DNA of 64,000 bases from Cenococcum geophilum (taxonomy: Eukaryota), in contig CP158635.1 in NCBI GenBank assembly GCA_050273025.1, positions 7,936,001 through 8,000,000 on the forward strand, given 5' to 3'. Position 1 is the stretch's first letter, and every line of letters begins with the position of its first letter. The notes below the pieces were generated by a model, which saw only the letters and a program-made list of their open reading frames with translations, was not told the DNA's origin and did not search any database. Positions 37,283-64,000 of this stretch are shown in pieces. Made by a program: the position numbers and the translations under genes.

Positions 37283-37380
37283 CATTAGGATTTTTTTTTG
37301 GGCTAGTTGTTGCGGTTTACGGCAAATTGCTACAAACTGTACGGTTGCGGCAGGTAGATATAGTCGTTAGCGAATTATAT

Positions 37381-37740
37381 AAACCATGCGTTTTATAATA
37401 AGTTTGCAGTACTCTAATAGTAAACCATACGTTTTATAACAAGTTTATAGCATCTAATAGCAAACCGCGCGTTTTATAATAAGTTTGCAGTATCTAATAG
37501 CAAATTATAGCAAAACGCTTAACTACCAAACTAATGCTAGCTTTTTGCTACCCTATAAATAAATAGCGCGCAAACTATATAAACTATACAAACTATACAA
37601 ACTATATAAACTATATAAACTATACAAACTATATAAACTATACGAACTATATAAACTGTCTAAACTATATAAATTATAATATACTGCTACAGATTGCCAC
37701 AGATTGCCATAGATTGCTATAGATTGCTATAGATTGCTAT
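37381..37740. repeat. Subterminal tandem arrays (about 40-bp x3; AAACTATAY x about 12; AGATTGCYAY x5)
   Basis: Directly visible in the sequence. Confidence 0.9.
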
Positions 37741-37789
37741 AATATGCCTTTAAAAATATATTTATATTATAACTACTATATAAAATAGC

Positions 37790-40700
37790 TACTCCTCTAA
37801 ACCTATTACAGACTATAAAGCATTTGCCTTATCTAGCCCCTCCTCTACCCTCGTTCTAAAGATATCTAGATCCTTATTATTAAATAGTATAAACTTAACC
37901 CCTTTTCCAATAGTATACTAAAGACTTATATTGGGTTTAGCCCTAAGCGTCTTTCTAAATAGCTTAACTACAGCTATTAACTATTCGTAATTCTAGCAAT
38001 ATAGTATATTAATGGTACGTTTCTAATTCCGCGATTTTATACCTTTAAAGATAAACTTATAGGTATTATTTCCAAAATTATTACTAGCGCCACCATCCTT
38101 ATCTATATCTTCTCCACTATTCACGCCAGTATTATTGCCTATGTCCACTCCATTATATTCGTTGCCCCCCTTTCTTGTACTATTCTAATTATCTATATTT
38201 CTACCTAGAGCTATATCCGTTCTATTATCCGCATCGCTATCTTTATCTATATTAACTCCACTATATCCGTCACAACGCTTATTTATATTAGTCCCGCTAT
38301 CTATACTGCTATTAGGGTCGCTAACATTATTAGGCCTACCACCTTAGTAATTAGTACTGTGGTCGGTCTAATTAGGCGACATATTATGGGGTATATTAGG
38401 CTAAATAACAGTACTAAAAGGGCGGGAGGTGTCTAGGTTTAAGGAAAGGGACGCGTTAAGTACCTAAATATAAGTATTAGTCCAGAACTGTTATTATAAG
38501 TAGTTGTATACTGGTAAAAGTATATTAAAGCGCTACTTATTAAATCCTATGTTATAGTCGGAGTCTAGGTCAGAAAGATTATTAAGACTATATTTAAATA
38601 GATTTGGAATTACTCATATAGCAGGGTCGTTACTATGTATAGTTACTTAATATCTTTTTAAGACGCCCTATCGCAAAAGCCCTAAAATCCAGTTCTAGCG
38701 CTCTATGTCACGGAACCCGACCGCAGGGGCCTCCATAGGAGAACCCCGTGCTCTCGCGTACACCTCGCGTACAGCTTATGTCAGCTACGCGAGGGTATAT
38801 TACCTCCTTACGCCCTCGACCCTTACGATTGATTGCGCAACGTCTTGTAGACTCCCCGAATACATACGCTTTGTAGCCATTGTCCGCGTTCTATGACATT
38901 ACGTTGCGCCTTTTTCTTTACTAACGCTTAGCCTACGACTAATTCTACGTCTCTATAATACTGCAGACGCTGCTAGAAGCAGCGTGTCCATAAGTTACCT
39001 TACTTTATACTCCTAAAGAATTAATAATAGTAAGACGAAATTCCTTACTAGCTACTATATTAAACTTAAAGAATAACCTAATACCTATATCGAAACCACA
39101 ACACTAATTAGTCCCAGGAGGATTTAATTTGTTAGCCCTAGCCTTAACCCCTAAAGGGAAGCCTAGTAGCTTAAAAGACTATAATGACTATAAGGGGGAT
39201 ATTAATAATGTCTTATTCTTTATTAACTATATAACTACGGATAAATAAGCCGAAGGGCTACTACCCATTGAGATCAAGATATGAGACGCCGAGATGTTTG
39301 CTAAAATGGTAGCATGAGAACCCGATAAATACTACCGCCTTCTATAGAACTACTATCTAAAGCTTACACGAGCTAAGATGCGTACTGCCTAAGATTATAA
39401 TATTATCTAAGACCTATAAGCTTATAAGGCACTCGCTAATAATACACGCCAAGAGATTAAAGATAACCTCCGCGTGTCTAAACGCAACGTCTAACAATTA
39501 AAGAAGGCCAAGATTATACTTATTGCTACAGTTACCGAAAGAGAGGGTATAATTAAATACCTATAATCCCAGCTTAATAAGCACACTCGTAATAATACTA
39601 GATACCTCTTTACTATATATAACGCCACCTAAGTTTCTACGCCCCCAGCAACTTTACCTACTTAACGCTTAACGGAAGGTTAGCGCCGAGCAGCTTCACC
39701 TAACGGGAACCCCTACTATAGCAGCGGCGATAACGAAAGCTATAATAATTAAACCTAAACTACTACTATAGGGTCTAATACACGCTACCCTAATCCCCTA
39801 ATCTTTAAGGGTAACCGCAAGAAATACAGCTACTAGAAGATGTAAACCCGCGAAAAACTAACCTAGAGCGCCTGCCTTTTCCCCATAAAAGATACTAAGA
39901 TTGGCTACATTATTAGACGAACAAAGGGCATCCCGTTTAATAGGCTTTTCGCTTAATAGGAGATTAGCAGTCCCTAGAAGTAGTAGTCCCACTAGGAAGT
40001 CCTTAACGACCTTAACTAAATATACCGCAACTATAACCTAGTAGCTACTAGTCGAGCTAAACTACGCTCCCTAAAGATAAGTTTTACTAAATTATTCGAC
40101 GAGTTCTATGTTAAATTCCAGGAATATACTAAAGTCCTCGCCTAAGACGACGCTAAAGACTAGAAAGATCTCCTTAAAAAAATCACTTATCGCCTTAGTC
40201 ACGCAGCCGCCAGCCATAACTATAACAACGTTTATAATATGGTAGCAGCCCTACGGAAGATTAAACGACGGCTGAACCAGATTACTACTGCAAACCTTTA
40301 CCCAAAGATCTCCCTATAGAAGCCCTCCGGACCTACTAAACCACTAACGCCTACTACCCTAAGTAATACCACTGGTCCTAATATCGACCTCTCTATACTA
40401 GCCTTCCTAAAGAAGCTACTAGATAGAGAGCGCGAGCTACTCCGGAAGCTAAGGCGTTACTATAAATACCATTAAAAAGGCTATTATAGCTATAGCCCAA
40501 ACTGCCTAATAGCTAGGTTTAGCAGCTACTATTAAATACCTAACCTTATACCCGGGACACTAAATACGTTGCTACGTACCGCTACCGCATAAGACGAAAA
40601 TGTAATAATGGTAGTAGAATTAGACGCGGAAGCGGAAAACGCAAAGTCCTAGCCCTAAGTCGTAGGTTATGACACTCCGACAATAGAGGGATCTATATAT

Positions 40701-43700
40701 TAGCTTACTTAATAGATAGCTTAGTAAGAATAAAAGGACGGAAGCAAATAGTCTTACCTATAAAGGGAACTACCGCTAAGAAACAATATAAAACCCGTTT
40801 TATAATTAACTATAGAGCTATTAATAAATTTGTAGATACCTAATTTATGCGTATTTATAACCTACCTACCTTACCCCTCGCTAAAGCCCGCGCCCTATAA
40901 CTCGCTAACGGTAGTTATACCGCATAAAAGATTACCTATATAGTATAACTCTACCTAAACATAAACGGACACCAGAAGGAGCTCTGGGCCTATATTATAC
41001 TACTTATAAACTACCCTATTATCCTTAGAATGAACTAGCTTAAATAACATAACCCCGCCATTAACTAGCAAAAGAAAGAAGTAACCTTTAACTCTAAATA
41101 CTGTAGAGAGACTTGCCTAGGGCACGGCCTAGCCACCTCTATCTACTCTCTAGGATATCAACCTAAGGAAACCCTTATTACCCCACCTATAACTAACTAC
41201 CACTATATAAGCGCTGCGGCCTTCTACCGTATAGCACATAGGAAAGGCTGGACCGTTGCTCTAGCCTTCTAATTATAACTATACAAGCTTAATAAAGATT
41301 AGGACCACGTCCTCTACAGTAATAAAATAGATATAGTTAACCTCCTAGAAAATAATACCCCTATAGAACTCTACGGACTTTTACCTTTAGACTTTAAGAA
41401 GTTTATAAAGCTTAAAAAAGGATTTACCAACAAGGAACTCCGTAAGCTCCTCCCTAAGAGATACTATGACTTTATTAACGTATGCTTATAAAAGAGCGTA
41501 GATATACTCCCCCCACATTAACCTAACAATTATACTATTAATATTAAATAAGGAAAAACACCGCCCTATAAGAGACCCTACCTAATATTAAAAGATAAAC
41601 TCCTAGTTATTAAAAAGTATATTAACGAACACCTTAACAAAGGGTTTATTCGTCCCAGTATATCCCCAGCAGCCGCCCCTATCCTCCTTACTAAAAAGCT
41701 AGGAGAAGGTATTTAATTCTACGTTAACTATAGAGGACTTAATACTATTACAATTAAGAACTAATACCCTATACCGCTTATACGCGAAACCCTTAAACAG
41801 CTTAGCCAAGCTAAAATCTATACTAAACTTAATATTATCGCCGCCTTTAACCGCCTCTAAATACAGGAAGGTGACGAATAGAAAACCGCATTTATATTGC
41901 GCTTCGGCCAATTTAAATACACTGTTATACCTTTTAGCGTATATAACGGCCCAGGCAGCTTCTAAAGCTATATCAATAATGCCTTATAGGACTACCTTAA
42001 CAACTTCTGCTCCGCATACCTAGATAATATACTTATTTATAGCAATAACCCTTTTAAGTATACTAAGCACGTTTAAAAGGTCCTATAGCGCCTTAGAGAC
42101 GTAGGACTTTATATTAATTTAAAGAAGTGCGAATTCTTAGTTATAGAAGTAAAATACCTTAGACTAATTGTTACTACTAAGGGTGTCTATATGGACCCTA
42201 AAAAAGTATACATAATTACTAGATGGCAAACCCCTACCTGCATTAAGGACGTATAAGCCTTCCTTAGTTTTACTAACTTTTATTAAAAATTTATATACAA
42301 CTTCTTAGGTATTATAGCACTACTTACAGCAATAATATAAACAAAGGGCCTTTCCGCAAAAGGAAGAAAAACATATTTACATTTTATTTGGACGCCTAAA
42401 TACAAAAAAGCGTTCTAAGACTTAAAAGATGCGTTTACTAAAGCACCTATCCTAGCTTACTTTATACTAGGACGACAACTCTATCTTAAAACTAACTCCT
42501 TAGACCACGTTAACGCGGGCGTCCTCTCCTAGATAGGCAATAATAGTCTCCTCTACTTAGTTATATTCTACTCGTCTAAGCTTATACTATAAGAATATAA
42601 CTATAAAATCTATAATAAGGAACTCCTTATAATTATATAAGCATTTAAGAAATTCTAACCAGAACTCTTCTTAGCAGAACCTAACTAGCTAACTAAGGTC
42701 CTTACGGATTATTGCAACCTTAAGTACTTTATAACTATAAAATAACTAAACTAACGCCAAGTACGTTAGAACGAGTTCCTCTCCGGTTTTAACTTTAAAA
42801 TTATATATAGGCTAGGAGTATAAGGTACTAAGCCTAATAGCCTAATACGCTATTTGTAAGACCTTCCTTAGTTAGAAGATAACCCTTATAATTAATTCCA
42901 ACGATAAATAATCCTAAAAGCACGAAACTTAGCCCTAGGTATACTACCCAAGATAAAACTAACTGCCCCTTAGCTTCATACCATAGAACTAGAGTTACCC
43001 CCTAAAATTAACAAACTTATTACCGTAGTATATAACACCCCTATTAACCCATTACTATATTAACTAATTACCGTAAAGATCGCCGGCACCTATATACTAC
43101 CTACTAACCTCTAAAGCTTAGGCCAGATTAATATAGCAGCCTTAAAAGTAAAAAAGAACAGGCTCTATTATAAAGGCTGTCTATTTATCCCCAACTTAGA
43201 AGACCTATAACGGCAACTAATCTAAATGGCCTACAACCTCCGATTAAGCGGCCACCCAGGCAAAGGAGGAACCTATAAGCTTCTCAGCCGATACTACTTC
43301 TGGCCTAAAATAATAGACTTAGTTAAACGCTTTATAAGCGCCTACTACAGCTATAAATATACTAAAGCATTTTATATAAAGTACTAAGGACTGCTATACC
43401 CTCTACTAGTACCTATACAACAATGGGCAGATATTGCTATAGATTTCGTTGTTAACCTACCGCCTTATAAACGATATGGCCGAACCTATAAGAATATCCT
43501 TATAATAATATGCCGACTTATAAAAGAACGCCACTATATCCTAACTAAAGGCGTAGCCGTAAGCGACGTTGCCGACGCCTTCCTCTATAAAGTTTACCGA
43601 CTATATAGGTTACCTGACTCTATTACGTCTAACTAAGGTATATAATTTAACTCTAATATATAGAGGCAGATCTGCTAACGCCTTAGTATCTCCATTAAAA

Positions 43701-46700
43701 TGTCTACATCCTTTTACTATAAAACTGCGGGATAACTAGAAAACGCTAACGCTAGTATAAAGGCGTACTTACAATAGGTAGTTGCCTATAGTTAGGACAA
43801 CTGGGTAGACTATCTTTTACTAGGTAAATTTGCAGCAAATAACTACGTCTTAGCCACTATAGGACTTACCCCGTTCTTCGCGAATAAAGGATATTACCTA
43901 TAATCCGGTATAGAGCCACTAGAGCCTATTAATAAGAAACTGCTATATAGAAAACGCCTTAAGATACTACTTGCCGATTAATATATAAACCGTATAAAAG
44001 ACCTACTTAACTACTATAAAGGAGAGATAGCCTAGGCCCAAGTAAAATAAGCTTACTTCGCTAACCGCTATAGAATACCACCACCTAAGATGCGTGTTAG
44101 CGACTGGGTATAGTTAAATATATATAATATCTCCACACAGAAACCTATAAAGTCACTCGATTATAAGAACCTTAGCCCCTACTAGATTAAACAAGTTATT
44201 AATAAAAAAGCTATATACAAACTAGAGCTCCCACCTACCTTAGCTACCCGCGGGATATAGCCCGTGTTTTACCTATAGCTACTATACCTTTACTAGCCTA
44301 ACCCTCTACTAGGACAAATATAGCCTAAACCCCTACTAGTACTAATCTAAGATAAGAACGAAGACGAGAACCATAAGGAGTGGACTGTTAAACAAATCAT
44401 TAACTCTAAATACTTTAGTAAAGGCAGAGGACGGCGGCTCTACTATAAAGCTACCTATATAGGATTTAATATAGATTAGCCGGAATGGCAACAATAGGAA
44501 GATTTTAAAAATATAAAAAATCTAATTAGCGATTTCTACTACGCAAACCCATAGAAACTAGGCCTAAGCAGAGATTTCGTACCTAATCCCCTATAGGAGC
44601 CGTCATAGCTAAATCGTTGTATATTACCGTTACATAACTACTCTAATAAGATATTAAGGAACTTTAACCGCCAGTTAAAGTTATCTAATTAGTCAGATTC
44701 TAGACGCTAAGGAGAAGCTAACTAATTAGGATTTTCCATCCCCGGGATAGAAAATCGCTATTAGCTTGCTTGCTACTAGCGCCTCAGCGACACCCTCGCA
44801 CCTTACTAAGTCCCTAATAGCCTCCTTCCCCTCTATAACCCAGTACCTTCGCATAGTAGCAACCCATAAGCTTTAAGTCAGAAGCACCTATACGAGCCCG
44901 TTACACCTATAATGATATTCCTTCTTCTAGATACCCTAAGCATTTCCCCCTATATATACATAGCAACCACAGCGTCGCCGGAGCTCCGCCTTAATAGGAG
45001 GGGGGGTAGTGTTATGGAACCCGACCGCAGGGGCCTCCATAGGAGAACCCCGTGCTCTTGCATACACCTCACATACAGCTTATGTCAGCTACGCGAGGGT
45101 ATATCACCTCCTTACGCCCTCGACCCTTACGATCGATTGCGCAACGTCTTGTAGACTCCCCGAATACATACGCTTTGTAGCCATTGTCCGCGTTCCGTGA
45201 CACTCTATTAACTAATCCGCCTATATAGCCTTTATCCGTTCCTATATAGCTAATATTAGAGTTAGTTATAGCGTAGCCTAGGTAGTTAGAACGAGGGTAG
45301 AGAAAGAATAAATTACTATTAAGATTGGCACCTACTTTAAACTTTTATTAGGTAAAACTACTACTTTTCTATTTATTAATAACGTGGCGGATTATTATAT
45401 AAATTAGTATAATAGCCCTAGGGCTAATTGGGCGCAAAAAGTGCTACGTATCTATACCGAACCCAAATTGCTACCTTCCTTTAAAGAATGACTTAGAGAG
45501 ACTAACTATAATAACCGGTACTATAAAGCGGGATTACTCGCCCTATAAATAGTTAGGAGAGTACTAAGGTAGTATAGCTATGCGTACTATCTTAGAGTAT
45601 TAAAAGTCATCTATATAGAGTAGCTCTTCTACTTTAGCAATTATTTCCTACTTAGAGAGCTTTCTAAATAAGTACTTAGCCTTTACGCAATCTTGTATAC
45701 GTCTTAATAGGTAAGACTAGAACTAGCTAATACTATTATATATCTATTTTATATTAGTATATATAAAAGTAATAAAAGGTAGCTTACCATACAATATATT
45801 AATGGCGATAGTTTTTATATTGCCTCGCTAGAACTATCGCCTTTAGAAACCCTATTATACTCTACTACTTTATCCTATACTAAGTCCATTGTCTTTTCTA
45901 GAGTCTTTACGTTCCCTTCCGGCTATAGCGTAAAAGAAAGACCTTTAGGAGCCTTACCCGACATTATAAACATTAAAAAGAAGCGCATAGCAGCTTTTAA
46001 TATTAGTTTATCCGTAAGTTTTAATTTAGGTTTACTACTACGTTTTATTCCTTACTATCTTCTAACTATATATATACCGTATTAAGACTTCTACGGTTTA
46101 TTACTGCGTATAGGCGCTATATAAAACGACTTAGCTATAAAGTTATCTTCGGCACTAGAGATAAACTCTTTAGTAAAAGAACAGTAGCATTAAAGCCGCT
46201 TATTAGGGCGATTTAGGACTTATAACCGCTATTAAAGCGTAAGCGGGTGTAAAGGAATAGAGTCTATATAATAGATACTATGGTTAAATTCTGTATATAT
46301 AGATTTAGAGATTATTCGTCTAAACTCTACTAAAGTTATCGACAATGCGCTCTTCCCTAGGGCATTAAGCCTCTATCTTCTTTAGAATCGCTATTTATAT
46401 CTAACTAACGTTTTAGGATGCTATCCCTAGATACTCTATTGCTATATATAGCCGTCTGCTAAAGTTAGCTGCATACTACCATATATATACTATTTATAGT
46501 ATTTTAGCCTAACTGCCGTTCGCGTATACGTTTCTAGATTCTTCTTATACTAGCAATATTATTTCTTTTACCTTTACCTTAGTGGCAGGTATATATTAAT
46601 ATTTTAAGTAGTTATATAGAGGGTAGTCTATACCTTATTCTTTTTAGAAGCTATAGTTATATTTTTTTAGAATAGTAGAGGTTAATAAACCTTCGGCATA
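37790..46700 (-). pseudogene. Multi-exon gene of unknown function, RIP-inactivated and split by Gypsy B (38706-45202)
   Basis: Protein-like de-RIP frames lie on both sides of the insertion. There is a minus-strand GTAAGC intron donor at about 45787 and an acidic low-complexity tract at about 38100-38330. Boundaries are approximate. Confidence 0.45.
38706..45202 (+). mobile_element. Complete Gypsy family B chromovirus
   Basis: 193-bp TG..CA LTRs at 38706-38898 and 45010-45202, TSD CTCTA, PPT GGAGGGGGGGTAG. RT AYLDD at about 42014, then RNase H, integrase and a chromodomain at about 44380-44550. Confidence 0.95.
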
Positions 46701-46949
46701 ATAAATATAGAAGAAGTTAAAGAAGTTAATAAAGATATAAAGATAAAGTATAATACTTTTAAATTATATATTTACTAGTATGGATGCAGTTAATGAAATA
46801 GAGGAGTAAAGGGGGAGATTTTAATGTTTTACTAGGGAGCTTAGACCTATCACTAGCCCACTTAGGGCAAATTATGGCAGATTGCCGTATATCTTGCCGT
46901 TAGCTATGCAATATTAAGAATTCCTACTAATAAGCAAGCACTAGAGCTA

Positions 46950-47720: not shown

Positions 47721-49646
47721 CGTTTTCGTTTTTATTCTAAGGCCTCTTATAATTTAATTAGAAGCTTAGTTTTAAATTTTTATTTCTTTATAAACTTATT
47801 TACGCATATACTATTAATCTAAAGAAAATTGTTATTGTAGAATTGATTATATATGTCCCAATCTATATACGAGTTTATCTAGAACGTTCTTCTTTTATTT
47901 AGTAAAGTTGGTATTAGTTATATGGGTCTCTTAATATAGGAAATGTCGTATATTTAGTGGCCGTTTAGGTTTCGTCTATTTTACGCTATATTTATAGGAA
48001 ATTATTCTACTTTAATTATCCCATTAAAAGGATCTACCTTACCTCCATTACATAGACGGAATAGCTTAAAAAGTGCTCTATAGTATACTCAGTATCTACT
48101 ATTCTTACCTATATAATTTAAGTCCTATACTAATACCAGCAATTCTAGACGGGCAGCCCGCGTTCCCTTTATTCCATCTATTACGTTCTTATATTCTTGT
48201 ATAAAAACTTAGTCCCTTTATAAGGCAGTAATCCGCATTTAGACTGGATTATAGCGTGCGCGTGCTTTATATAGTCGATTAAAATTATAAAAGTCTTTAC
48301 TATATTAAATATAATATATTATAGAGTAATAAATACTAATAGGTAAATCTTATACCCAGGCTGCATCCCTTTTAAGGTGCTTAATGTCTAAATCCGTTGC
48401 TTATATACTATTAACTCACTTATAACATTCCCGCACAAATAAAGCTAGTTTTATAATAAATTTATTAATACCTAGCCTAGTCTAAATTTCGTAAGCTCTG
48501 CGCTATAAATTTAGGTTTATTCCGCACATTAAAAACATTTAGTTAGTTAACTAGCAGTAATCCCATCTATACGGCTTATCTATTAGGTTAACTATACCTA
48601 ATAATAATACAATATATAAATCTTCTATAGTATTAGCTGCTAGTATTAGCCTTATGTTTTCCCATAGCTCTATCTCTTATATTACTATAGTATTTATTAA
48701 TTCCGTATTAAGATAAATTATTTACTCTTTATACCCTTTACGCTTATTTAATCTTTAATAGAAATTCTTCTAAGGAATATATACCCTTTCGCCATGCTCT
48801 ATTATAGTTCCCATTAGGGCACTAAATATATAAATTATCTCCGGATAGTAGGAAATTGCATAAAGTTTAAGTATATTAAAATTAGGTAGGTTTTTGTTGT
48901 TAGGTCGGTACGGTAAGAACGCCTCTTTAGTCTTATCTATTTAATATAATACAGCTTTAAGATATTTAATCGTATCTTTATTATATAATTCGTATTTAGC
49001 TAATAATATAAAGTTAACTATAGCATAAATAAACAGCATTACCCCCTTGTGCCTATATAGCAATGGTGCCATAACTAGTATAATCTAACAAAGAAGGGAC
49101 TTGTATATCTTTCCAGTCCATTAACTTAACTCTGCAAAGTTATCCCATCTAATTATATCCTAAAAGGGTTTAACCTTAGCAAATTATGCGTCAGGAAAAC
49201 GGGGGGTGGCGCACGAAATTTAGTTTCGCTAAAAGTGTTTTTGGGGCCCGGGGCTAGCTCTCCGCCATATTAGCTGACCCCCTAGAGCTCTACGCCAGCT
49301 TTCTACCATATTAGCTAGGCCCTAGAGCTGTACGCTAGCATTATGCTAGCTTATGGCTATAAAATAAACATTATTACTATTATTGCGTTTATTGCTATTA
49401 GGGTATTAAAATCCTAAAGGCCTCCTAGCAGGCTCCTAGCAGGCTTCCTAGTAGGCTCCTAGTAGGACTTTAATTTTCCTAGTTATCTCAATCGCCCTGA
49501 CAGCGGCCCACAGTGCTATCGGGTCCCCACTATATTCCCGGCAGCCTCTACGTGTCTTTACATACCCCTTATATACCTAAATACCACTTATTTTTTACCC
49601 TTCCTTCCATCCTCTCTACCTAGGGAGGCACTACAACGGCAGCTAG

Positions 49647-50245
49647 TAGATGACTGTGGCCAGAACCAGACGACCGTCGCCAGAACTAGATGACTGTCAT
49701 CAGGACGACCGTCATCAGGACCAGACGACCGTCGTCAGGACTAAACAACCGTCGTCAGGACCAGATAACCGTCGCCAGAACTAGACAACCGTCGCCAGAA
49801 TTAGACGACCGTCGCCAGAACTAGACGACCGTCGCCAGAACTAGACGGCCGTCATCAGGACGACCGTCATCAGGACCAGACGACCGTTGCCAGAACTAGA
49901 CGACCGTCATCAGGACGACCGTCATCAGGACCAGACAATCGTCGCCAGAACTAGACGACCGTCATCAAGACCAGACGACCGTCGCCAAAACTAGACGACC
50001 GTCGTCAGAACCAGACGACTGTCATCAGGACGACCGTCATCAGGACCAGACGACCGTCGCCAGAACTAGACGACCGTCGTCAGAACCAGACGACTGTCAT
50101 TAGGACGACCGTCATCAGGACCAGACGACCGTCGCCAGAACTAGACGACCGTCGCTAGAACCAGACGACCGTCATCAGAACCAGACGACCGTCATCAGGA
50201 CGACCGTCATCAGGACCAGACGACCGTCGCCAGAACTAGACGACG
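49647..50245. repeat. GC-rich minisatellite of 20- and 15-bp units with core GACGACCGTCRYC
   Basis: About 30 directly visible units. Confidence 0.95.
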
Positions 50246-50354
50246 ATCGTTCGAACAACCAGTCAGCAACACCACGAACGACTTAATCGATCGATCGAAT
50301 CGAACCAGAGCCTCGATATCAGCCCGCTACCGAATCAAATCGAATTAGATACCA

Positions 50355-50545
50355 TAGACAGATATAGACGGTAGGCACAGACAGGTAGGCATATACAGGT
50401 AGGCACAGATAGGTATAGGTAGGCAGGCAGGTAGGCAGGCAGGTAGGCAGGTAGGTAGGCAGGCAGGCAGGCAGGTAGGCAGGCAGGTAGGCAGGCAGGC
50501 AGGCAGGTAGGCAAGCAGGTAGGTAGGCAGGCAGACAGGTAGGCG
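50355..50545. repeat. (AGGC/AGGT)n microsatellite
   Basis: Directly visible in the sequence. Confidence 0.95.
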
Positions 50546-53149
50546 GGTGCTAGGCCTAGTTAGGAAATTAGTACACGGCCGGTGGATCGTCAGGAATATC
50601 GCCAATTGACGATTTGGAGCCTCTGCAAGAGGCTTCCCACTTATTTTAATTAATTGCTTAATAACCAAATTTAAAAATTTAAAACCCATTATTATTCCCA
50701 TATAAATATTGCAGTTATAGAAAATATTATAACTATTATAGTAAAAAGATATATTATAATTTTTAAAATTAATATTATTAATATTACTAATGTTGCTAAT
50801 GTTGCTAATGTTGCTAATGGGGCCCGGGGCTAGCGTAAAGAAGTGTACATGAGCAGATCAGCGGATCTAGCTAAAATGACCCCGGGCCAGCCCCGGGCCA
50901 GCCCCTGGCTAGCCCCTACCACTCTCCCGTTTTCCTGACGTGCGGTTAGAAGACGTTTTACCCTATCCTTAGCAGATAATAGGGTTTTTATACCACTCTA
51001 ATTAGTTATTAAAACCTTCCCTTTCCCTTTTTTAATATTAAGTAGTAGTGCCTAAAGCCGGCTTATTAAATGCTCTGTAACGCCTTTATATAGCTAGTAT
51101 AGTAAATTAGGGGCCATTATAGCGTGTATATCCGCTATATAATAGGACTAGGCAAATTTTTTAATTGGCCTAATATACTTAGGGTCGCTGCGATCTAGCT
51201 ACAAGTTTTACTGTCGTTTAAGTTGCTTAATAGTCAATTTATATATCCGTTACGGCCATTTGCTAGATATAATGCTTAGTAGGTTACCTTATTTATAAGG
51301 CGGTATATAATATATTATATAGTGTTACCCTAATTTTACTTCTATTAATATAACCTACTCCTTATAGTCTGCTATAAACCCAATAAGTATAGGGTAGTAT
51401 TGCTAGATAAACCCATCCGCGTATTATATTAGTATACCGCGCCTAGTAGCGCGTTTAAGGGCTAGTTTTTATATTAACTTAAGTACCTATACACTACTAA
51501 AGTAAATACTTACGTTTAAATATAATGCTTATTACTTAATGGTATATATCCAGCTTATTTATCTAGTTACTTAGTAAGTCCGTAGGTATATAACCTAGAA
51601 GAAGTATTACTGGCCTACTAGCTATACGTTAAGTCTTTAATAGGATATTAAGTATTGTAATATAAACCAGATGCGCCTTTTTATCTCTAGATAGTGTAGT
51701 TAGCTTAGTTTAGTTGCTACTAGGTATTACTATAATAGCCGTCGCACTATTAGGTAATTAATCTTAGAACTCCTACTAACAGTTAGCTATATATGCCTCG
51801 TTATACACTCTATTACCTTTTATATTAAACTAATAAATAGGAGAATAAACCATATTATCTTTAAATAGGAAATAACTAATTAGAAAGGCCACCACGCTAA
51901 GTATATTACAGTAGTATATCTTTAGGTTTTTGCCGTATATATTAAATTCTATAATTCGCCAGCTCTTATTACTTACACCTTTAAAAATAGAATATAGTTT
52001 TATCTTAACTTCTTTTATATTTCGGTATAATATATATCCGTCCCTTATATTTTTAATATAGGGGTCTTATAGCTACGCGTCTATTTCTTTTACTAACGTG
52101 CTATTACATACCTACTAGGCAACTTACGCCCATTCTATAAAGCTTGTAAAAGGGTAGAATATATTATTGCCCTTATTTATTCCATCTGCTGGCTAGCTAA
52201 GCCTTAGTAGGTAGCCGCGATCCGTAGTAGACTACTAATTAGAGTTCCCCTCTAGGTGGCTAAGTAGGGTTCCTATATAGCGGCCAGTCACTTTATAATA
52301 AGTTTGGGTATAATAAATATTTAAAGTAGAGAGGCTTATTGCCGCGTAACTATACATTTTAGTACTAGTTAGTTATTCTACCGGTGCTGTATTACTTAGC
52401 TCCTCTACTAATATTAAGCCGGTATTTCCTGTAATGGTTAGTAAAGTATTATTAATAGCGGTATTAGTTGCTATAAGGTTATATACCCATTATTCTATAG
52501 TAAATTTGTCATCTTTATATATATCCGCTTAAGCCTAAATTATAGGATAGACATTATCCTATTAGTTAAAATAGTTTATACCTATAGCTTTACAGTATAG
52601 CTTATATCGCGCCAATCTACCTATAGTAAAAATTGTGCGCTTGCATTTAGGGCACTAGCGATTTATTAAGCCTATTATAATAGCAACAAATACGGCTCCT
52701 TACGTTGTTATTAAGATTTAATAGGTGGGTTTATACCTAAAAAGGGCAGTATATTACATAACTAATCTAATAGCCGTAATATACAGCAATCTGCTAGCTA
52801 TCCTAATAGCTATAACGGCTTGCTCCTTTTAAATTATAAGTTAAATACACTAAGTAGCATATTATCCTAAGCGCTAATAATATATAAAGCAGTATTATAT
52901 CCTACAGTACCTATTATAATTAATTTACAACCACCAAACATTTATAAACCTTTAATCCCGCGTCCCTTACTAATACTATACGCACCTAGCATAGCAATAA
53001 TATAATTAAATAGTATGCATATTATAGAGGAGGTATAGTATAAGTCTACTAGTAAAACTCCTAGGAAGGATAAGCAGATTATATCTAGGTTTAGTATTAG
53101 CAGCGCTCGTTTATACAAAATTAAAGGGGTAGTTAAGGATATTGTAAAT

Positions 53150-53880
53150 AAGAGCAATATAATATCTATACGCTTCTAAGACTAAATAAATTACGCTATT
53201 TAAAGTAAAATTATAGCTAAAATCGTTAATTAAATCCTAGAGTTTAGTAATGCTCTAGTTAGGTAGACTAAAGAAGTAGCCTAATATCTCCTTACTCGCA
53301 CGTAGTTAAATATACGTAAGAAAGCTAGCCGGGCTAGTGCTAAATTGGGACTTCGGTATAGAGCTATAAATTCTGCTATAGGGTACCCTTATACAGAGCC
53401 TTAGGATATATATTAATCTCTTTTACCTAAATATGTTAACAAATATAACGTTTAGGGTCTTATAATCTATATATACTAAGATTTAGAGAATATACTACAG
53501 TCTATAATTTATATGGACTTAGGTACTAGTCTACTTTAAACTAACTTAGTAAAAGGGTGGATAAGTCTTTTAAATTTCCCTAAATTTTTTAATATTACCT
53601 AGGACGCTAGAGTTAACCTAGAGATAGAGGAGTTATAGGCAGATATACTAATAATTATACTAGTTCGGAATATAGGACTTTTAAAGTATATAATATAATA
53701 AACGCTTAAAGCCTTTAAGGATATAATTGTTTTTATAGTTACGAATATACGCGGTATATAGTATTAGTCCTTATAGCTTTAAATCTAATACTATTTAGAG
53801 TCTCAATTATTTACTGGAAGCCCTACTTAAAAGGGTATATTAAAGCGGTCTTAATTAAGCTAAAATATCAATCCTAAATA
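53150..53880 (+). pseudogene. Decayed ORF divergent from the transposase, unknown function
   Basis: Protein-like de-RIP frame (..YxRKLAGLVLNWDFGIELQ..). Boundaries are approximate. Confidence 0.3.
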
Positions 53881-57300: not shown

Positions 57301-57850
57301 CTAACGCAGTTAAAAATCCTATTAAAAGTATCTTAGATTAGAATAAGGAGGAAATTCTTTATAACAATATAAAGTTTAAAACGCTTTTAGCTATCTATAA
57401 AGAAATTACAGCAGCACTATATGTTAAAGGCTATCGTAGTAAATTTTTTATTAGTACTAATTTTTTATTTATTAGGGCGGTATATATACTAGTAAGTAGT
57501 AAAACACTCTATCTTTTTACCTCTTAATAGCAGTACGCTTAACTGGAACTCTAAGCTAATACTTATTTTAAGCCTTAGTTGCTAAATATAGCAAGGATGC
57601 TATTATATGCCTCCCTAGAGGAACATTACTAAAGTAAAAAGACTATATAATTTATAACTTATAAAAGCAGCTAAATAGACTATAAATTCTCTTATTATTT
57701 CTAAAGGCTATTACGGAGGGTGTTACTATTAACGGCTTCCCGTATTGGAAGTGGAATTCTAAATAAGCTTAAGTTTAAGAAAAATGTAGACATAAATAAG
57801 CCTGGAAATTTAAAGAGGTAGCTAATATAAATGTTATAGATTATAGTAGC
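54319..57850 (+). pseudogene. SNF2/SWI2-like SF2 helicase, paralog 1
   Basis: De-RIP PHQLYG (Q motif), NGGVFADGVGTGKT at about 55996-56037, RDEFH at about 56580, and motif-V-like KAITEGVTI..ASR at about 57704-57743. Long acidic/basic N-terminus. Confidence 0.75.
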
Positions 57851-57869
57851 AATATATTTTTAATCCTTT

Positions 57870-58915
57870 TAGCGCGGAATTAGGTAATATACTAAGTAGT
57901 TTGCCGTAAATTCTTTTTTAGTAGAAGAAGTATAACAGACTATTATTTTTAGAATTAGGTAATATAGTAGGCAGTATTCCGCAGTCTTACGGTTAGTAAA
58001 AGGCAAATACTAGATTGTTTTTTTTTATAGAATTAAGCAATATACTTAGTAATATATAGCAGTCTTATAGCTAATAGAAGGCATATACTAAGTTATTTTT
58101 TATAAAACTAGGCAATATATCGGCAATATACCACAATTCTTTTATTAATAAGAGAAGTATACTATTTTACTATTTAAGGAACCGGGCAATACACGGGTAA
58201 TATATCGTAGTGCTCTATTAATAAAAGAAGCCGCTAGCTTATAACGCGGGAACCAGGTAATATATAAGCTAATATTCGGAATACTTTACTTATAAAAGGA
58301 GCTTACTAGCTTGCGATATAGGAACCGGGTAACGCATAATTAGGTATATCACAATGCTCTATTAATAAGCAGCGCTTACTAGTTTACTATTTAAGGACCT
58401 AAGTAATACGCTAGGCTATATATCGTGGTGCTCTGTTAATATAGCAAGTCTACTAGTTTGCGGCGTAAGAGCTAGGTAATATACGAGCTAATATATCGGA
58501 ATACTCTGCTAATAGGCGATACCTGCTAGCTTGCAATTTAAAGAATTGGGTAATATGCCTAGCAATATACGGCAACTTCGTGCTTAGTAGTAAAAGTTTA
58601 CTAGCTTGCCGCTTAAGGAACTAGGCGGTGTGCTAGGCAATATATAGCAATTTCGCGCTTAGTAATAAAAGTTTACTAGCTTGCCGCTTAAGGAACTAGG
58701 CGGTGTACTAGGCAATATACGGCAATTTCGCGCTCAGTGATGGAAGTTTATTAGCTTACCGCTTAAGAAACTAGGCAATATGCTAGGCAATATACGACAA
58801 TTTCTTACTTAGTAATAGAAGTCTACTAGCTTACCGCTTAAGAAACTAGGCGTATGCTAGGCAATATGCGGCAATTTCGCGCTTAGTAATTAAAGTCTAC
58901 TGGTTTACTCTTTAA
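57870..58915 (-). repeat. Degenerate tandem repeat, mostly 72-75-bp units, probably coding (24-25 aa units)
   Basis: GGAACYRGGYAA recurs at in-frame spacings. The minus strand reads about FLERQAGxLPSLSAKLPYIAQHxAQ after de-RIP. Confidence 0.7.
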
Positions 58916-59899
58916 GGCAGTAATCTTGTTAGATTGGAGCTCCTAGCTAGAGTTATAATTAATATAGACTTTAGATCTAACTATTTAATTAGTAGAGCGG
59001 AGTGAATATAAAGTTAATATAGCTCTTAGAGCTCTAGATCTATAGCTAAGGAAGAATAGATTACTGGTAACTCCGTGCTTAATATAAGGCCAATTAGTAA
59101 CTTCTAGAGCTCTACTACTAACTCGGTGTCTATTAAGGGGCATATTAGCTATAGAATTTAGAATACCCACTTATTCTACTACTATTCTCTTTATACTAGT
59201 ATACGGCTCATTCCAGATATATACCCCAATCGCAATACTATAGTCGCGTTTGCATACCTTATATAATGTTATTATCTTAATCTTTTTAATCGCGATAAGC
59301 TTGTTTCCGGGGGGTTCGTATAAAAGGTAGGCAAAGATATAGAAAACGCCGATTATAGAGAGGACGTTAGTTAAGGAGGAGGCTCTATTACTATATTAAA
59401 GTAAGGAGTCGCAATAGAGGCCTAGTGGCAGAGAGGGGCTCTTTTAAATTGTTTACTAACGTTAATTACGCATTAATATACAAAGTTAAATCTAGAGCCT
59501 TATTTTGGAGCCTTACTAAATAATTAACTTAATTACAGATTTAAATAAGCTATAGTAGTAGCCGCTACTAATTATAAAACGGGTAATATTAAAAGGCGTA
59601 TAGATTAAACAGTTATAATATAGAGGTGATTTGCAACTAAATAGTAAGGAGCTTTAAGCTCTATATCCCTTCGTCTAGTAAAAGAGACTTTTTATATTGG
59701 GCGCTTTAGGCGCTCCTACCTAGGTTAGTATACTGCGGGCACCCTAGCTAGCGTGATTTTATTAGCAAGCCTTACCAAAACGCGTTAACTTGCGATGCCG
59801 ATAAAATGCTATAGAAGGCCACTACCTATATATATATTTAAGGAAGTTAGGCAAAATGTCGTAATATATAATATTATAATTATAGGTTTTTACCCTTCC

Positions 59900-61050
59900 T
59901 CTATTAACCAGCTGCCGATTATATAGAATAATCCTCTATTAAAGTCTTCCCCTAAATTACTACCACCTATTCGCTTTATACGCATTCTTAATATTAATAA
60001 GGATAAGCTTCCCTCTTAGATCTTACTACTAAATACTATCCATCTATCTATTACCTACTCTCTACATTAGAACTAATTTCCCCTTAACTTAACTATATAC
60101 TAGCCCTTAACCTATTTCTAAAGTAAACGTTATAATAATATATATGCCAATAAGGAGTTATAGATATCTTATACTAATTAGTTATTATAGATAAATAAAA
60201 ACCCTAAGTATATAACTACCCCAGCCAAGCGCACTAAGCGTCCCTATATTAAAAAGGCGTTACTAAAGAATAGAGATAGGATTACTAAGCCAGCTCTAAA
60301 GCCGCAAAAGAAGAAAGCGGCAGATAGTTGCTAAAAGGAGATTAGAGGGTTTCTAATTAAGTAGGAGAAGAATAGTAAGGTAGCTAAAGCTATAAAGACA
60401 GCTTAGCTACCTATTAAGAAGCCTTTACCAACCCATTCTGTCCTGCCGGCCGCTAGAAATGCCACTATATATAGTTTAAAAAGAACCGAGTTAAATAAAA
60501 ATAGTGCCGCGGAGATAGCTGTTATAGAAACTAAAAAACTATAAAGAGGGACCTCTTTAATATTATAAGTTAGATAATTAGTCGTATAAAGAAGGGATAG
60601 GATACTTTATAGACTATATTACCCGCTAATTGCCAGAATAGAGAGTTTAAAGACAGAAATTAAGGAACTTTAAAAAGCTAAGAAGGCTTAAAATATATCT
60701 ATTATTAATCTAATCCAGGACGCCTAAGTAATAAAGTAGGATTATCTCTAAGGTTATAAAACTATATTTGTAACTAACTAAAGCGCATAATATAAATTAA
60801 AGAAAGGTAATATTTTAAAAGCTTTTAGTAAAGGACCAGCTTAAGGTTATAAGGGAGACGTACTATATACGCTAAATAAGGTATATTAAGTGCTATAAGT
60901 AGTTAAACAGTTTAATTGGCGGCTGTTTAATATAGAGGATTAATTAAGGGCGGTATAGGAGGGCTTAAAGGAGGCTATAGTAAAGGCTTAATTAGCTTTA
61001 CCTAGTCTCCTATTAAAAAATAATCAAAAACAATACGTAAATTCTATACT
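59900..61050 (+). pseudogene. Decayed ORF with Lys/Arg-rich and coiled-coil-like tracts
   Basis: PAKRTKRP and KPQKKKAA are read on the + strand. Boundaries are approximate. Confidence 0.3.
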
Positions 61051-61549
61051 TAGCTAAGTTATTACCTTTTTATATTAGTAGTTAAGGTAGGGTTTATAAG
61101 GTTTAATAAACTAATAAGTTAGTTTAGTTCTTAAATCCTAAAAATTATAACTATATAAGGCTTATACTACCTAAGGCAATCTACTATAAAATGCCGCTAG
61201 ACTCGGTATTCCGCGTATTTACTAGAACTTCTTAATTCACCTTACCATTAATAAGTATTAGATAACGGTAATTTGCCTACTAGCGTTACTATAGAAGTAC
61301 TTAACTTTAATATCCACTTCGCCTAACTCTTTACCTCTATTACCTTAACTAACTCTCTTACGGCACCTCTACGCGACATTAATTAGTTAATTAATTAGTT
61401 TAACCGCTAATTACTACTTTAAGTCATAACTTATACCCTAGAACTGCGGAAATCTACCTAGTTAATTAATTCTTATAATTAGTTTGTCTTACCTACCTAC
61501 TTTAGACTTATACCTGTACTAAATACTAACTAGATTCTTCCGCTCTTAT

Positions 61550-64000
61550 ATAGTAACACTCTACTTCTCCTTTATCCTATTTTAGTATCTTTATACATTA
61601 CTATAAAGAACTTAGATATTATAAATAAATGGGAAATTAATACTTATCGCCTTAAGGAAATTAAGAAGACAATCTTAGATAATATAGTAGAGGCTAGGCT
61701 TAATAAAGTCGCGTTTTATACTACTAAAGATAAAATACTACGCGATAACTTTATCTAGAAGGTTCTTAGCAACTTACCTAAGAGAGAAGGTATTTTAGAG
61801 AGCTAGTCTAAAAATACTATTATTACTTTAATAACATCTTAGAGAACTAATGCTATAAAATAGCAAAATAATTTAAAACCTAAAAGTTAGACTTAAACCA
61901 AATTTAAACCTATAATAACGCTAGCGCCTATATTTACTCCTAAGCAAATCTTAGAATCACTAGGCCCTATATTATTAGGTAAGCCGCTTTTACTTAAAAA
62001 TATAACCTTCTAATTTTAAAAAATAAACTTAACCACCCAAAACACTATAGAGCTTTATATAATCTATAACATTATAAAAGCTAATACAGAAACTCTAACA
62101 ATTAAAGAAATTAGTTTTTTGCTATTTCAAGAGGTTATAGTATTAGTAGGGTTTAACTTGGACAAGGATCAAATTATATAGGTTAACATTAAATCCTATA
62201 AGGAGGCTTATATTACCTAGCAAGGGGTATTATAAGCCGTATTTTAGCAATATATGCTATACCACAGAAGTAAAGTAGAATTTATACTTAAGAGTACCGA
62301 TTATAAGTTCTTTTAACAACATCTAGCTATCTATATACTAATAATTGCAGCTAAGCATTTAATTACAGAAATATTATACTAAATACCGCGCAAGCAGAGC
62401 ATAAACCCTCCCAGTATCGCCAATACCCTAATTCGCCAGTCTTTGCACAGCAAGCCTATACACAAAAAACGGCGAAAGACTGCGTCTAAGCAGACTTACA
62501 AGTACTTAGAATACTTAGATAATAAGTTCGTTAATAAAGACATTAAAAGTAAGAGCGATGCTTTATTAACCTTATTAGCGTACAGCAGTATTCTAAGTTT
62601 ATTAGGTCGGAAGAAACGTAGTTATAAAAGAAAGCAACCTACTAGAGTATCTAAAGGCAAATTATAGTAAGCTACTAAGGACGGCTACAGCGGTCTAGCT
62701 ATCTAGCCTATAGGGGTCCTAATAGTATAGAGAAGAATAAAGACAATTATAATGCTCTCTAAAGCGCAACCGCTCTAGATCCTAAACTAGCTTAACTATA
62801 GGTTATAACCGCAGACAATCTAGCTAGTAATACTATATAGGTTTCTATAGAAGACGACAACCTAGAAGAAAAGGCCCTTAAAGATATAATAAATAAAGCC
62901 AATAGGGAGGCAGAGGCTGCTAATTATATTAAGTAAAGGTATAGGCATATAAGCATATAGAGTACATCTTAAATTAGACTAATATTAGCTTTTTTCAGAT
63001 TTTAAGAAGCCGCTATAGTAAAAGTAGGCGGTAAGGTTAAGAGAATAGAGCAGTAGATATATAAACGCTTAGCTAAGCTATAGGGGGTTTCTAAAAGGGC
63101 CCTTCTAGGGAATAATATGGTCCCTATTCCCCGCAGATAGGGTCTAAATTTAGAGTTTAAAGCGTTTCTATACCAGCTATATAGTACATCTAAGATATTC
63201 TACTAGGAACGTATAGAGCTAAATAGTAGGGTTTTTATAGACGGTATAGGGACCGGCAAAACAGTAACCATATACTTAACTATTGTCCTTAACTACCACT
63301 ATACTATAAACCTAGATAAAGTAGCTACTAATCAAGCGGCTAAAAATGCTACTTAATATCTACTAAAGGGCCACTAGGCTAATAGCGTTAAGTATCCTAG
63401 CTAGGATAGAGTGCCTCTACTATACTTATATATAAATCGCAACGCTATATCTATAATACGTAAACAGTATAGTGCCAGCCTAGTTATTATAGTTCCACAT
63501 ATTATTACTGCTTAGAGAGATAATTATATCTTATTATTTAAAGACTTATTACTTATAACACAAGCGTAGGCACCACTAAAAGTTACAATGTACTATTTAA
63601 CGGCGGATGTTTTTCTAGGTATAGAGCAGCCGACTTTAGATAAGTGGCTAGAAATAGGAATATTAGGAAACTAAACCGCCTATAATGCTTTAAATACTTA
63701 TTAGGCTCTTATAGATAAAGTAAAAACCCCTTACCTATGGTTCTCCGACAGTATCCTACCACTTAAAAAGGGCAATCCTTTAGTTAGTACCCCGGCTGCC
63801 TTAGTAATAAGATTTATTATAATTATAATATCTAAATGCCTAAAACAGTATATTATTAACAACTTTATAATTACTAGAAGAGTCCACCGCTTCTTATCTA
63901 ATAGTAAGCAAAAGGATAAAGGTTAGTAGTCGGTTAAGACTATATTTTTTAGTAGGGTTTTATAGGATAAGTTTTATAACGAGAAGAATAAAGAGACTAT
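61550..64000 (+). pseudogene. SNF2/SWI2-like SF2 helicase, paralog 2 (runs off the window)
   Basis: Colinear with about 54319-56610. DGxGTGKTV is at 63240-63266 and de-RIP RDEFHNEK at about 63964-63987. The supplied ORF 62443-62667 is a surviving in-frame piece. Confidence 0.78.

Follow-up and report, generated by a model that had tools for sequence, protein, structure and literature searches.

Positions 37283 to at least 58916 of the window (the whole 64,000-nt stretch of the Cenococcum geophilum contig CP158635.1) probably hold a single dead copy of a DNA transposon, large and autonomous, from the Plavaka lineage. It carries extra genes, including a decayed helicase-like gene, and appears to have been killed by RIP. 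Two other mobile elements, the retrotransposon Gypsy B and a TIR element, are inserted in it. The transposase is on the minus strand, and the net length after subtracting the two insertions is at least ~13.4 kb. The features are listed in Table 1. The main comparison is with L001, an un-RIPped metagenome contig that is independent of the window.

Table 1. Features of the Plavaka block and its surroundings (positions in the window).
Position	Strand	Feature	Evidence or detail
37220..37282	+	Left flank: end of truncated Gypsy pol, chromodomain	Translations, tblastn map
37283..37290	+	Candidate left terminus	CATTAGGA, readable as RIP form of CATCAGGA/CGTCAGGA
37381..37741	.	Left subterminal tandem repeats	40 bp x3.1, 9 bp x11.9, 10 bp x5.7
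38621..38705	-	DUF6532 relic, 3' part, cut by Gypsy B	tblastn, L001 ORF 514-1164, residues 179-206
38706..45202	+	Gypsy B LTR retrotransposon, later insertion	5-bp TSD CTCTA
45203..45743	-	DUF6532 relic, 5' part	PF20149 E 6.2e-6; tblastn 70% identity / 181 aa
47010..47690	+	Relic of 227-aa ORF (L001 2427-3110)	tblastn 69% identity / 227 aa
47714..49188	-	Transposase relic, C-terminal part, downstream of TIR insert	tblastn, L001 ORF 3132-5102, residues 161-656
49189..50940	.	Non-autonomous TIR element, 1.75 kb, GC-rich (GC 0.56), not RIPped	TSD TG
50943..52675	-	Transposase relic, N-terminal exon and start of exon 2 (DDE core)	PF18759; tblastn, L001 ORFs 5164-6342 and 3132-5102
52895..53758	+	Relic of 288-aa ORF (L001 6566-7432), divergent from transposase start	tblastn 67% identity / 288 aa
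54016..57854	+	Helicase-like pseudogene relic, copy 1, ~3.8 kb, motifs in changing frames	tblastn of L001 segments
55999-56040	+	Copy 1, candidate motif I	
56582-56605	+	Copy 1, candidate motif II	
56686-56709	+	Copy 1, candidate motif III	
56937-56957	+	Copy 1, candidate LRRxK	
~57686-57730	+	Copy 1, candidate motif V	
57877..58916	.	Tandem array, 75-78-bp units	L001 contig ends within array
58917..61283	.	RIPped DNA without similarity to rest of element (scores at null level)	No Pfam match
~60170-61000	+	Lysine/arginine-rich reading inside 58917..61283	
61284..64000	+	Helicase-like relic, copy 2, runs off window	Candidate motifs I 63225-63263, II 63966-63989

Extent and Unity of the Block

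L001 is collinear with the window at 38075-38704, 45203-49190 and 50939-58701, with 83-85% identity. DUF6532 and Plavaka are on one strand of L001 and the helicase-like stretch is on the opposite strand, in the same order and spacing as in the window. Gypsy B and the TIR element are both absent from L001, which has empty sites with the TSDs CTCTA and TG. The alignment skips exactly these two insertions, in agreement with the sequence-only reading, which had set both aside. Because the un-RIPped L001 is collinear and shows clean empty sites in place of both insertions, the DUF6532 gene, the transposase, the two small ORFs and the first helicase-like stretch are, as judged from sequence, one conserved unit of at least 13.4 kb net.

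The sequence-only reading proposed that more than 18 kb had moved as one cargo-rich element. The unity of the block holds up to 58701. Nothing independent supports the part beyond 58.9 kb, the second helicase-like copy included, and no right end was detected. L001 does not stop before ~54 kb but reaches the equivalent of 58701. An element ending at ~52808 or 54052, with the helicase-like repeats as a separate family, was considered and rejected, since L001 continues through both points. L001 ends inside the element at both sides, and the point where collinearity stops on the right, 58701, is its contig end. L001 may represent this very locus in a relative and be no transposed copy. The right terminus of the large element, an inverted partner of its left end and its TSD were all not found in the window up to 64000. 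We therefore infer, rather than observe, that the window copy moved as a single piece. The helicase-like stretch at 61284-64000 might belong to the same Plavaka element or lie outside it. L002 and L003 have no relation to the window element at the DNA or protein level.

Only two ORFs of at least 80 aa overlap 37000-64000. Starships, the giant cargo elements of fungi, have a DUF3435 tyrosine-recombinase "captain" at one end. Six-frame Pfam scans of 37001-64000 gave no DUF3435 match at E <=0.01. The left arm shares a 19-nt word (AGATTGCC...) with the 75-bp array and with a Gypsy LTR, and its 14 matches exceed the 0.19 expected by chance. The word was rejected as a shared signal because a stricter 9-mer count failed outside the arrays.

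Left Edge and Nested Insertions

The left edge adjoins a Gypsy element whose chromodomain is cut at 37282. This chromodomain belongs to an older Gypsy, with its integrase at 30008-31054. The older Gypsy is split by a complete LTR element at ~31051-36996, which carries its own chromodomain and polypurine tract. The Gypsy tail motif EF[HY]..P.KP, in a RIP-tolerant reading, is missing at ~37220-37282. On the plus strand of the window it is seen only at 36508 and 44531, both inside other Gypsy copies, so the truncated Gypsy does not resume before 64000. The interruption and the lack of resumption up to 64000 thus stand as first described, with the correction that the chromodomain is that of the older Gypsy and not of the LTR element inside it.

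The CATTA at 37283 is suggestive of a RIP form of CATCA, since PlavakaB elements have 5'-CATCA..TGATG-3' as their ends (PMC12730594). The candidate end is only 8 nt long, and its degenerate 8-mer is expected about once per kb by chance. The 8-mer class of CATTAGGA also ends the nested TIR element and recurs within it. Subterminal repeats, proposed from the sequence at the outset, are present in the left arm; the 40-bp repeat unit has three matches in the window, all of them there.

The LTRs of Gypsy B are 193 nt long and 94.8% identical, and its Pfam matches are RVT_1, RNase H and integrase. The ends of the TIR element are CGTCAGGAAAACGGG...CCCGTTTTCCTGACG, of the type CGTCA..TGACG, with ~22-nt inverted ends and TG on each side. 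Inside it, 15-20-bp arrays carry further copies of the end motif CATCAGGA. Beyond the 8-nt end, no match was found between its arms and the left arm of the large element.

RIP Signature

In nine of nine sub-regions of 37283-64000, TpA/ApT is 1.26-1.84 and (CpA+TpG)/(ApC+GpT) is 0.41-0.69. The corresponding indices of L001 are 0.99 and 1.16, and L001 is not RIPped. Substitutions from L001 to the window total 1949, of which 1753 are of the RIP type: 916 G>A and 837 C>T, most of them in the CpA/TpG context (542 changes at CpA and 572 at TpG, with L001 as the reference). Both the indices and the excess of G>A and C>T bear out the uniform RIP first seen in this block.

Transposase and Accompanying Genes

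The transposase relic spans 47.7-52.7 kb. Pfam's Plavaka domain, PF18759, is matched twice on the minus strand, at 51931-51563 (E 2.3e-17) and at 51459-51064 (E 1.8e-8), which confirms the Plavaka transposase recognised by eye. In L001 the two matches have E-values of 5.1e-36 and 2.1e-28. There, ORFs of 392 aa and 656 aa are joined by a 61-nt GTAAGT...AG intron, and a C2HC finger is present. The motifs CTMC (CxxC) and HAISH (H(3-4)H) are found in the L001 ORF; the catalytic D/D/E residues were placed only by eye. Both motifs have been described for this transposase clade (PMC12730594). The two-exon transposase of L001 looks intact. Between L001 and the window its CDS has no indel, whereas the helicase-like region has 16, of which 13 shift the frame. 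Word-indexed protein searches have little weight here, because they returned nothing even for the Plavaka stretch recognised by Pfam.

PF20149 is matched in L001 with E 6e-17. DUF6532, an uncharacterised domain, is physically linked to a Plavaka transposase in two copies. The 227-aa ORF has no Pfam or PDB match. The 288-aa ORF has no family match; its two weak PDB matches are to designed proteins (OR497 and OR329), with no aligned stretch passing alone.

Helicase-Like Stretches

The two SNF2-like ATPases of the sequence-only reading are two direct copies of one sequence. Between copy 1 (54053-56533) and copy 2 (61284-63759), 1851 positions are identical, and 450 transitions and 144 transversions are seen. 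Copy 2 differs by ~6% transversions from both copy 1 and L001, against 0.6% between copy 1 and L001. It is accordingly not a recent internal duplicate, and its sequence reads as that of an older, diverged paralog of copy 1.

SNF2 identity is only partly supported. A home-made test with motif consensus strings was used to score ordered motifs. L001 9300-11800 scored 247, compared with 167-204 in 13 of 13 control stretches, and none of 60 shuffles reached this score (mean 178.2, sd 7.8, max 198). Taken singly, the scores of motifs I, II, III, LRRxK and V were reached by 1, 11, 21, 6 and 27 of 500 shuffles, respectively. These five motifs are in canonical order with a long gap after III. Motifs Q, Ib, HPxL, IV and VI were not above shuffles (311, 454, 439, 444 and 498 of 500). 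In a RIP-tolerant reading, motif I is seen only at 55999 and 63225 across the whole window. Scoring replaced the candidates first chosen by eye for motifs II and III (LVMEEQ and QTGTLGD) and for motif V. At 56364 a different frame of copy 1 seemed to contain a DExH box. This was rejected as an artefact of RIP-tolerant reading, copy 2 having VLFNGGCF, without DExH, at the matching site (by eye).

No match to the SNF2 Pfam families (PF00176 SNF2-rel_dom and PF00271 Helicase_C) was obtained at any threshold tried in the window, L001 or 15 fragments, a test weakened by pseudogene queries. PDB searches by phmmer or profile, with an E limit of 10 (1 in one search), gave no Snf2 match, only single unrelated chance rows. 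Whole-library phmmer from the RIPped copy found no full-length protein. In the Atlas feature search, fragment P0001 points to "SNF2 N-terminal domain (Fragment)" at 0.94 and to a cluster with 91% PF00176 at 0.89, which is a lead only; fragment P0015 had no usable match.

The 15 short ORF fragments come from other assemblies and are 40-69% identical to the helicase-like stretch; one segment occurs in as many as five different versions. The helicase-like segment is multicopy. Both subtypes have metagenome relatives; P0015, P0006 and P0004, for example, resemble copy 2.

Across 7.7-11.7 kb of L001 no frame stays open, and stops and frameshifts break the helicase-like gene. A working remodeller aiding transposition is not supported, because the gene is broken in the un-RIPped L001 while the transposase is intact there. 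For these copies, the earlier suggestion of a remodeller-like ATPase assisting transposition or opposing silencing likewise lacks support.

Alternative Explanations

The block could belong to one giant element that runs from 37283 past 64000, exceeds 18 kb net and carries two SNF2-type paralogs as accessory genes that helped transposition or opposed silencing. This is possible, but we consider it somewhat unlikely. The truncated Gypsy tail and the right end are both missing up to 64000, the metagenome fragments include relatives of both helicase-like subtypes, and a red alga is known to have Plavaka elements of 17.4-19.1 kb that carry accessory genes. All of these would suit such an element. 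The collinearity of L001, however, stops at 58701, its contig end; 58917-61283 resembles nothing in the element; and the ~6% transversions of copy 2 do not fit a recent internal duplicate. The breakage of the helicase-like gene beside an intact transposase in L001 also speaks against it. Still less probable is a block that is not mobile at all, that is, a conserved chromosomal segment in which a domesticated or dead transposase and its neighbours were RIPped via segmental duplication, L001 being the same locus in a relative. The position of both L001 contig ends inside the block, leaving no flanks, and the 0.6% transversions between copy 1 and L001 would agree with this. Against it are the intact L001 transposase with family motifs and a conserved frame, the coincidence of the left edge with a truncated Gypsy and a CATCA-type end, and the several differing RIP-like versions of the helicase-like segment in other assemblies. 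RIP requires repeated DNA, which also disfavours a non-mobile segment.

As for the "SNF2-like" stretches, they might not be helicase relics at all, but unrelated DNA, non-coding or coding for something else, in which a Walker-A-like word occurs by chance. The HMM and profile searches were all negative, five of ten motifs are at the null level, and the DExH-like reading of copy 1 at 56364 was spurious. Even so, we regard this as unlikely. Five motifs each exceed shuffles and are in canonical order with the long post-III gap typical of Snf2 (PMC1616948), and the Atlas feature matches point to SNF2 N-terminal clusters. A dead Plavaka element carrying a decayed helicase-like gene is the reading adopted below.

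Possible History and Implications

By analogy with its family, the live element would have moved by cut-and-paste, its two-exon DDE transposase acting on short CATCA-type ends and subterminal repeats. The helicase-like stretch most probably represents a gene of old standing, accessory or captured, which would have decayed before this copy was inactivated, and not a working remodeller. The copy would then have been destroyed by RIP, with C to T changes at CpA and CpG. Gypsy B presumably interrupted the element, and later the un-RIPped non-autonomous TIR element with the same class of ends may have been inserted. It can be speculated, with considerable doubt, that the PlavakaB lineage anciently recruited an SNF2-type ATPase (now two paralogs) and DUF6532 as a standing accessory module, giving an element of more than 18 kb, and that in an intact ancestor the ATPase opened targets or resisted silencing. 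If true, fungi would have, in the ATPase and DUF6532 module, an equivalent of the cassettes of accessory genes known from giant Plavaka elements of red algae.

The block offers a worked example of a large fungal Plavaka with mapped content: DUF6532, a two-exon transposase, two ORFs and a helicase-like relic. L001, as an un-RIPped relative with an apparently intact transposase, is a candidate for activity testing. A striking cargo gene can be dead already in healthy relatives, and this tempers claims of functional transposon-borne remodellers. If intact helicase-bearing relatives exist, giant-Plavaka accessory cassettes would extend from red algae to fungi.

Comparison with Known Systems

Plant CACTA/EnSpm elements capture gene fragments. 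The present block resembles them in being a CACTA-type element that carries, besides its transposase, coding sequence of a gene now no longer intact. In contrast to such captures, the carried sequence is long (~3.8 kb), is represented by two old paralogs, and has a conserved position beside the transposase.

In Snf2 family proteins, seven motifs related to helicases follow one another in order, and the spacing between III and IV is elongated (PMC1616948). The stretches here share with Snf2 ATPases the ordered candidate motifs I, II (DExH type), III and V and the long spacing after III. They differ in the absence of PF00176 and PF00271 matches, in that motif VI was not found, and in a frame broken in every copy seen.

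The closest likeness in fungi is to PlavakaB, of the CMCT clade (CACTA/EnSpm-Mirage-Chapaev-Transib) (PMC12730594). PlavakaB is characterised by 2- or 3-bp TSDs; TG/TG flanks the nested TIR element, as the empty site in L001 confirms. Points of likeness are the Plavaka Pfam domain, CxxC and H(3-4)H, the candidate CATCA-class left end and the nested relative with a 2-bp TSD. The fungal families described in PMC12730594 carry at most a TET/JBP gene, whereas DUF6532 and a helicase-like relic are present here; Pfam scans of the block gave no TET/JBP match at E <=0.01.

The sequence-only reading knew of no description of this gene combination, but a giant Plavaka with three accessory genes is known from the red alga Bostrychia moritziana. 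It is 17.4-19.1 kb long, with the accessory genes PAG1-3 and tandem repeats (bioRxiv 10.1101/2025.02.11.637652). Both are large Plavaka elements with several non-transposase genes and internal tandem arrays, and most copies are degenerate. The algal accessory genes are of methylase/SET and ParB-oxygenase types, not DUF6532 or helicase-like, and their host belongs to another kingdom. Inactivation by RIP is a further difference of the copy described here. The element is a variant of the known Plavaka transposon type, not a new system.

Composition and repeats of the window

By GC content (0.27–0.40 per 2-kb bin), the entire 64-kb window is AT-rich. The analysis draws on the window plus publicly available protein and metagenome sequences. 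RIP dinucleotide-index thresholds serve as the yardstick for its mutation. The indices are extreme and of the RIP type in all nine sub-regions tested (TpA/ApT, 1.26–1.84; (CpA+TpG)/(ApC+GpT), 0.41–0.69), in agreement with the uniform RIP described in the sequence-only reading. Only two ORFs of ≥80 aa overlap 37000–64000. A Pfam scan in six frames, with X placed at stops, recovered the pol domains of Gypsy B, a retrotransposon nested in the block from 37283 to 64000, as well as minus-strand matches that confirm the proposed Plavaka transposase. The repeats in the table were mapped by self-comparison of the window. The direct repeat has 1851 identical positions, 450 transitions and 144 transversions. 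Positions 1–30000 contain more RIPped repeats: an inverted Gypsy B fragment (539–2790), a second Gypsy family present twice (3169–7710 and 16466–21004), and several 0.4–1.7-kb repeats in both orientations.

Features of the Plavaka block, its surroundings and the related contig stretch L001
Feature	Window position	L001 position	Strand	Details
Older Gypsy integrase	30008–31054			pol picks up again at ~37000; chromodomain end 37220–37282
Complete LTR element	~31051–36996			LTRs ~235 bp; polypurine tract ~36750; own chromodomain ending near 36570
Gypsy B	38706–45202			193-nt LTRs, 94.8% identical; self-comparison
GC-rich tandem arrays	49.6–50.3 kb			self-comparison
75–78-bp unit arrays	57.9–58.9 kb			self-comparison
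Direct repeat, 2.3–2.5 kb	54053–56533 vs. 61284–63759			self-comparison
Collinear block	38075–38704	1–627		BLASTN
Collinear block	45203–49190	624–4611		BLASTN
Collinear block	50939–58701	4606–12396		BLASTN
DUF6532 ORF			minus	L001; Pfam E 6e-17
DUF6532	45752–45336		minus	Pfam E 6.2e-6
DUF6532	45743–45201 + 38707–38621			split by Gypsy B; tblastn
Plavaka transposase, two ORFs (392 + 656 aa)		3132–6342	minus	E 5.1e-36 and 2.1e-28
Plavaka transposase	51931–51563		minus	Pfam E 2.3e-17
Plavaka transposase	51459–51064		minus	Pfam E 1.8e-8
Transposase	52675–51503, 51420–50938, 49201–47714			split by TIR element; tblastn
ORFs of unknown kind	47010–47690, 52895–53758			227 and 288 aa in L001; tblastn
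Helicase-like, copy 1	54016–57854			tblastn
Helicase-like, copy 2	61361–63752 and onward			tblastn

An un-RIPped relative and the gene content

In a whole-library phmmer search, the first helicase-like stretch matched only 15 short ORFs (39–239 aa, 40–69% identical), from ENA and JGI assemblies. One of these fragments, P0003, led by related-locus search to L001, which is 12,401 bases of a 12.9-kb metagenome contig with GC of ~0.45. Its RIP indices of 0.99 and 1.16 are those of un-RIPped DNA. BLASTN of L001 against the window gives three collinear blocks with 83–85% identity. Because these skip just Gypsy B and a TIR element (49189–50940), L001 lacks exactly these two insertions, and its junctions are clean empty sites with duplications of 5 bp (CTCTA) and 2 bp (TG). 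The idea that the block is one unit once both insertions are removed is thus upheld for 38075–58701. This copy does not end before ~54 kb, since its alignment reaches 58701. Between L001 and the window there are 1949 substitutions, including 916 G>A and 837 C>T, most at CpA/TpG. This excess and the un-RIPped state of L001 indicate that the window copy arose through RIP from an element like L001.

The two transposase ORFs of L001 are bridged by a 61-nt GTAAGT...AG intron, and encode a C2HC finger at the N-terminus as well as the CxxC and H(3-4)H motifs. Judged from these features, the two-exon transposase is apparently intact, and the L001 relative may be an active element. On the plus strand are the two ORFs of unknown kind, followed by the helicase-like stretch. 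The genes of L001 were placed on the window by tblastn. Without Gypsy B and the TIR element, 37283–58916 is ~13.4 kb net.

The TIR element has GC of 0.56, inverted ends of ~22 nt (CGTCAGGAAAACGGG...CCCGTTTTCCTGACG) and internal arrays containing CATCAGGA or CGTCAGGA ~25 times. It is a non-autonomous 1.75-kb element with PlavakaB-like ends and TG on either side as TSD. It is un-RIPped inside the dead, RIPped transposase gene, and therefore a related family moved after RIP of this copy. The array at 49686–50254 is strongly self-complementary (score 240 vs. ~60 in shuffles).

Boundaries and size of the element

At the left edge, a complete LTR element is inserted within the integrase of an older Gypsy. 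The pol tail EF[HY]..P.KP (RIP changes allowed) is seen on the plus strand only at 36508 and 44531. This indicates that the older Gypsy is truncated at 37282 without resumption before 64000, as had been noticed, with the correction that the chromodomain belongs to an older Gypsy split by the complete LTR element. The sequence at 37283 is CATTAGGA, and three tandem arrays lie behind it. This sequence could be a RIP form of the PlavakaB CATCA..TGATG end class; as the degenerate 8-mer occurs about once per kb, it is no more than suggestive of a terminus. A 19-nt word of the AGATTGCC type is seen in the left-arm array (37691–37739, plus), the 75-bp array (58560–58877, minus), both LTRs of the Gypsy nested at the left edge (31096 and 36804), and at 52774 and 27800. 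It has 14 matches vs. 0.19 expected; a tighter 9-mer count is not clearly enriched outside the arrays.

The sequence-only reading proposed a single element of >18 kb with two SNF2-like ATPases. A unit spanning at least 37283–58916 is probable, and the larger element appears rather doubtful. Up to 64000 the window has neither a continuation of the Gypsy tail nor a recognisable right terminus, which would suit the larger size. However, 58.9–64 kb has no independent support as part of the element, since the L001 contig ends in the 75-bp array, and the 2.4 kb ahead of copy 2 (58917–61283) match nothing in the rest of the element. In RIP-tolerant local alignments, 45–64 kb yielded no inverted match to the left end above shuffle level. 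Transversions are 148/2443 aligned positions between copy 2 and L001 and 144/2445 between the two copies, far above the 15/2580 between copy 1 and L001, indicating that copy 2 is an older paralog and not a recent duplicate. Just upstream of copy 2, 60170–61000 (plus) shows a lysine/arginine-rich reading and then a coiled-coil-like stretch, with no family match.

Ancestry and decay of the helicase-like gene

Neither SNF2_N nor Helicase_C was matched by Pfam in the six frames of the window, L001 or the 15 fragments, and neither phmmer nor profiles of 2 or 16 sequences matched PDB. Three word-indexed protein searches found nothing; they also miss the Pfam-recognised Plavaka stretch, so this negative is weak. 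In the Atlas feature search, fragment P0001 gave "SNF2 N-terminal domain (Fragment)" (0.94) and a 91%-PF00176 cluster (0.89), a lead only, and fragment P0015 gave nothing. A self-written ordered-chain test used consensus strings of ten SNF2 motifs. L001 9300–11800 scored 247, vs. 167–204 in all 13 control stretches and at most 198 in 60 shuffles. Tested singly, motifs I, II (a DEFH..KN box), III, LRRxK and V exceed shuffles (score reached by 1, 11, 21, 6 and 27 of 500), and motifs Q, Ib, HPxL, IV and VI do not. Across the entire window, the motif I word (RIP changes allowed) has just two occurrences, at 55999 and 63225. The distance after motif III is long, as described for Snf2 proteins in PMC1616948. 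For the proposed SNF2-like ATPases, five motifs speak for this identity and the Pfam and PDB searches against it; SNF2/SF2 ancestry is probable.

Between L001 and the window, indels number 0 in the transposase coding region and 16 (13 frameshifting) in the helicase-like region. No frame is open across L001 7.7–11.7 kb, the transposase frames of L001 are free of stops, and the SNF2-type motifs lie in shifting frames in both copies. Thus, even in un-RIPped L001, where the transposase is apparently intact, the helicase-like gene has decayed. There is therefore no support for the suggestion that a functional remodeller aids the movement of these copies; the stretch is better explained as an old gene, either accessory or captured.

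Comparison with known Plavaka transposons

From 37283 to at least 58916, the block is a large transposon of the PlavakaB type that was killed by RIP; it carries the genes mapped above and, as the relic of a pseudogene, the helicase-like stretch. DUF6532 is listed beside Plavaka among enriched domains in one paper. In the literature searched, co-mentions of Plavaka or EnSpm with SNF2 are unrelated; families related to this element may be included in Data S1 of PMC12730594. PMC12730594 defines PlavakaA, PlavakaB and their TET-bearing families, and gives PlavakaB termini as CATCA..TGATG with 2–3-bp duplications. Unlike those TET-bearing families, the block has no TET/JBP match in six-frame Pfam scans. 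According to bioRxiv 10.1101/2025.02.11.637652, TET/JBP was the only gene found with Plavaka in basidiomycetes, and a red alga has giant Plavaka families of 17.4–19.1 kb, each of which contains tandem repeats in addition to its three accessory genes.
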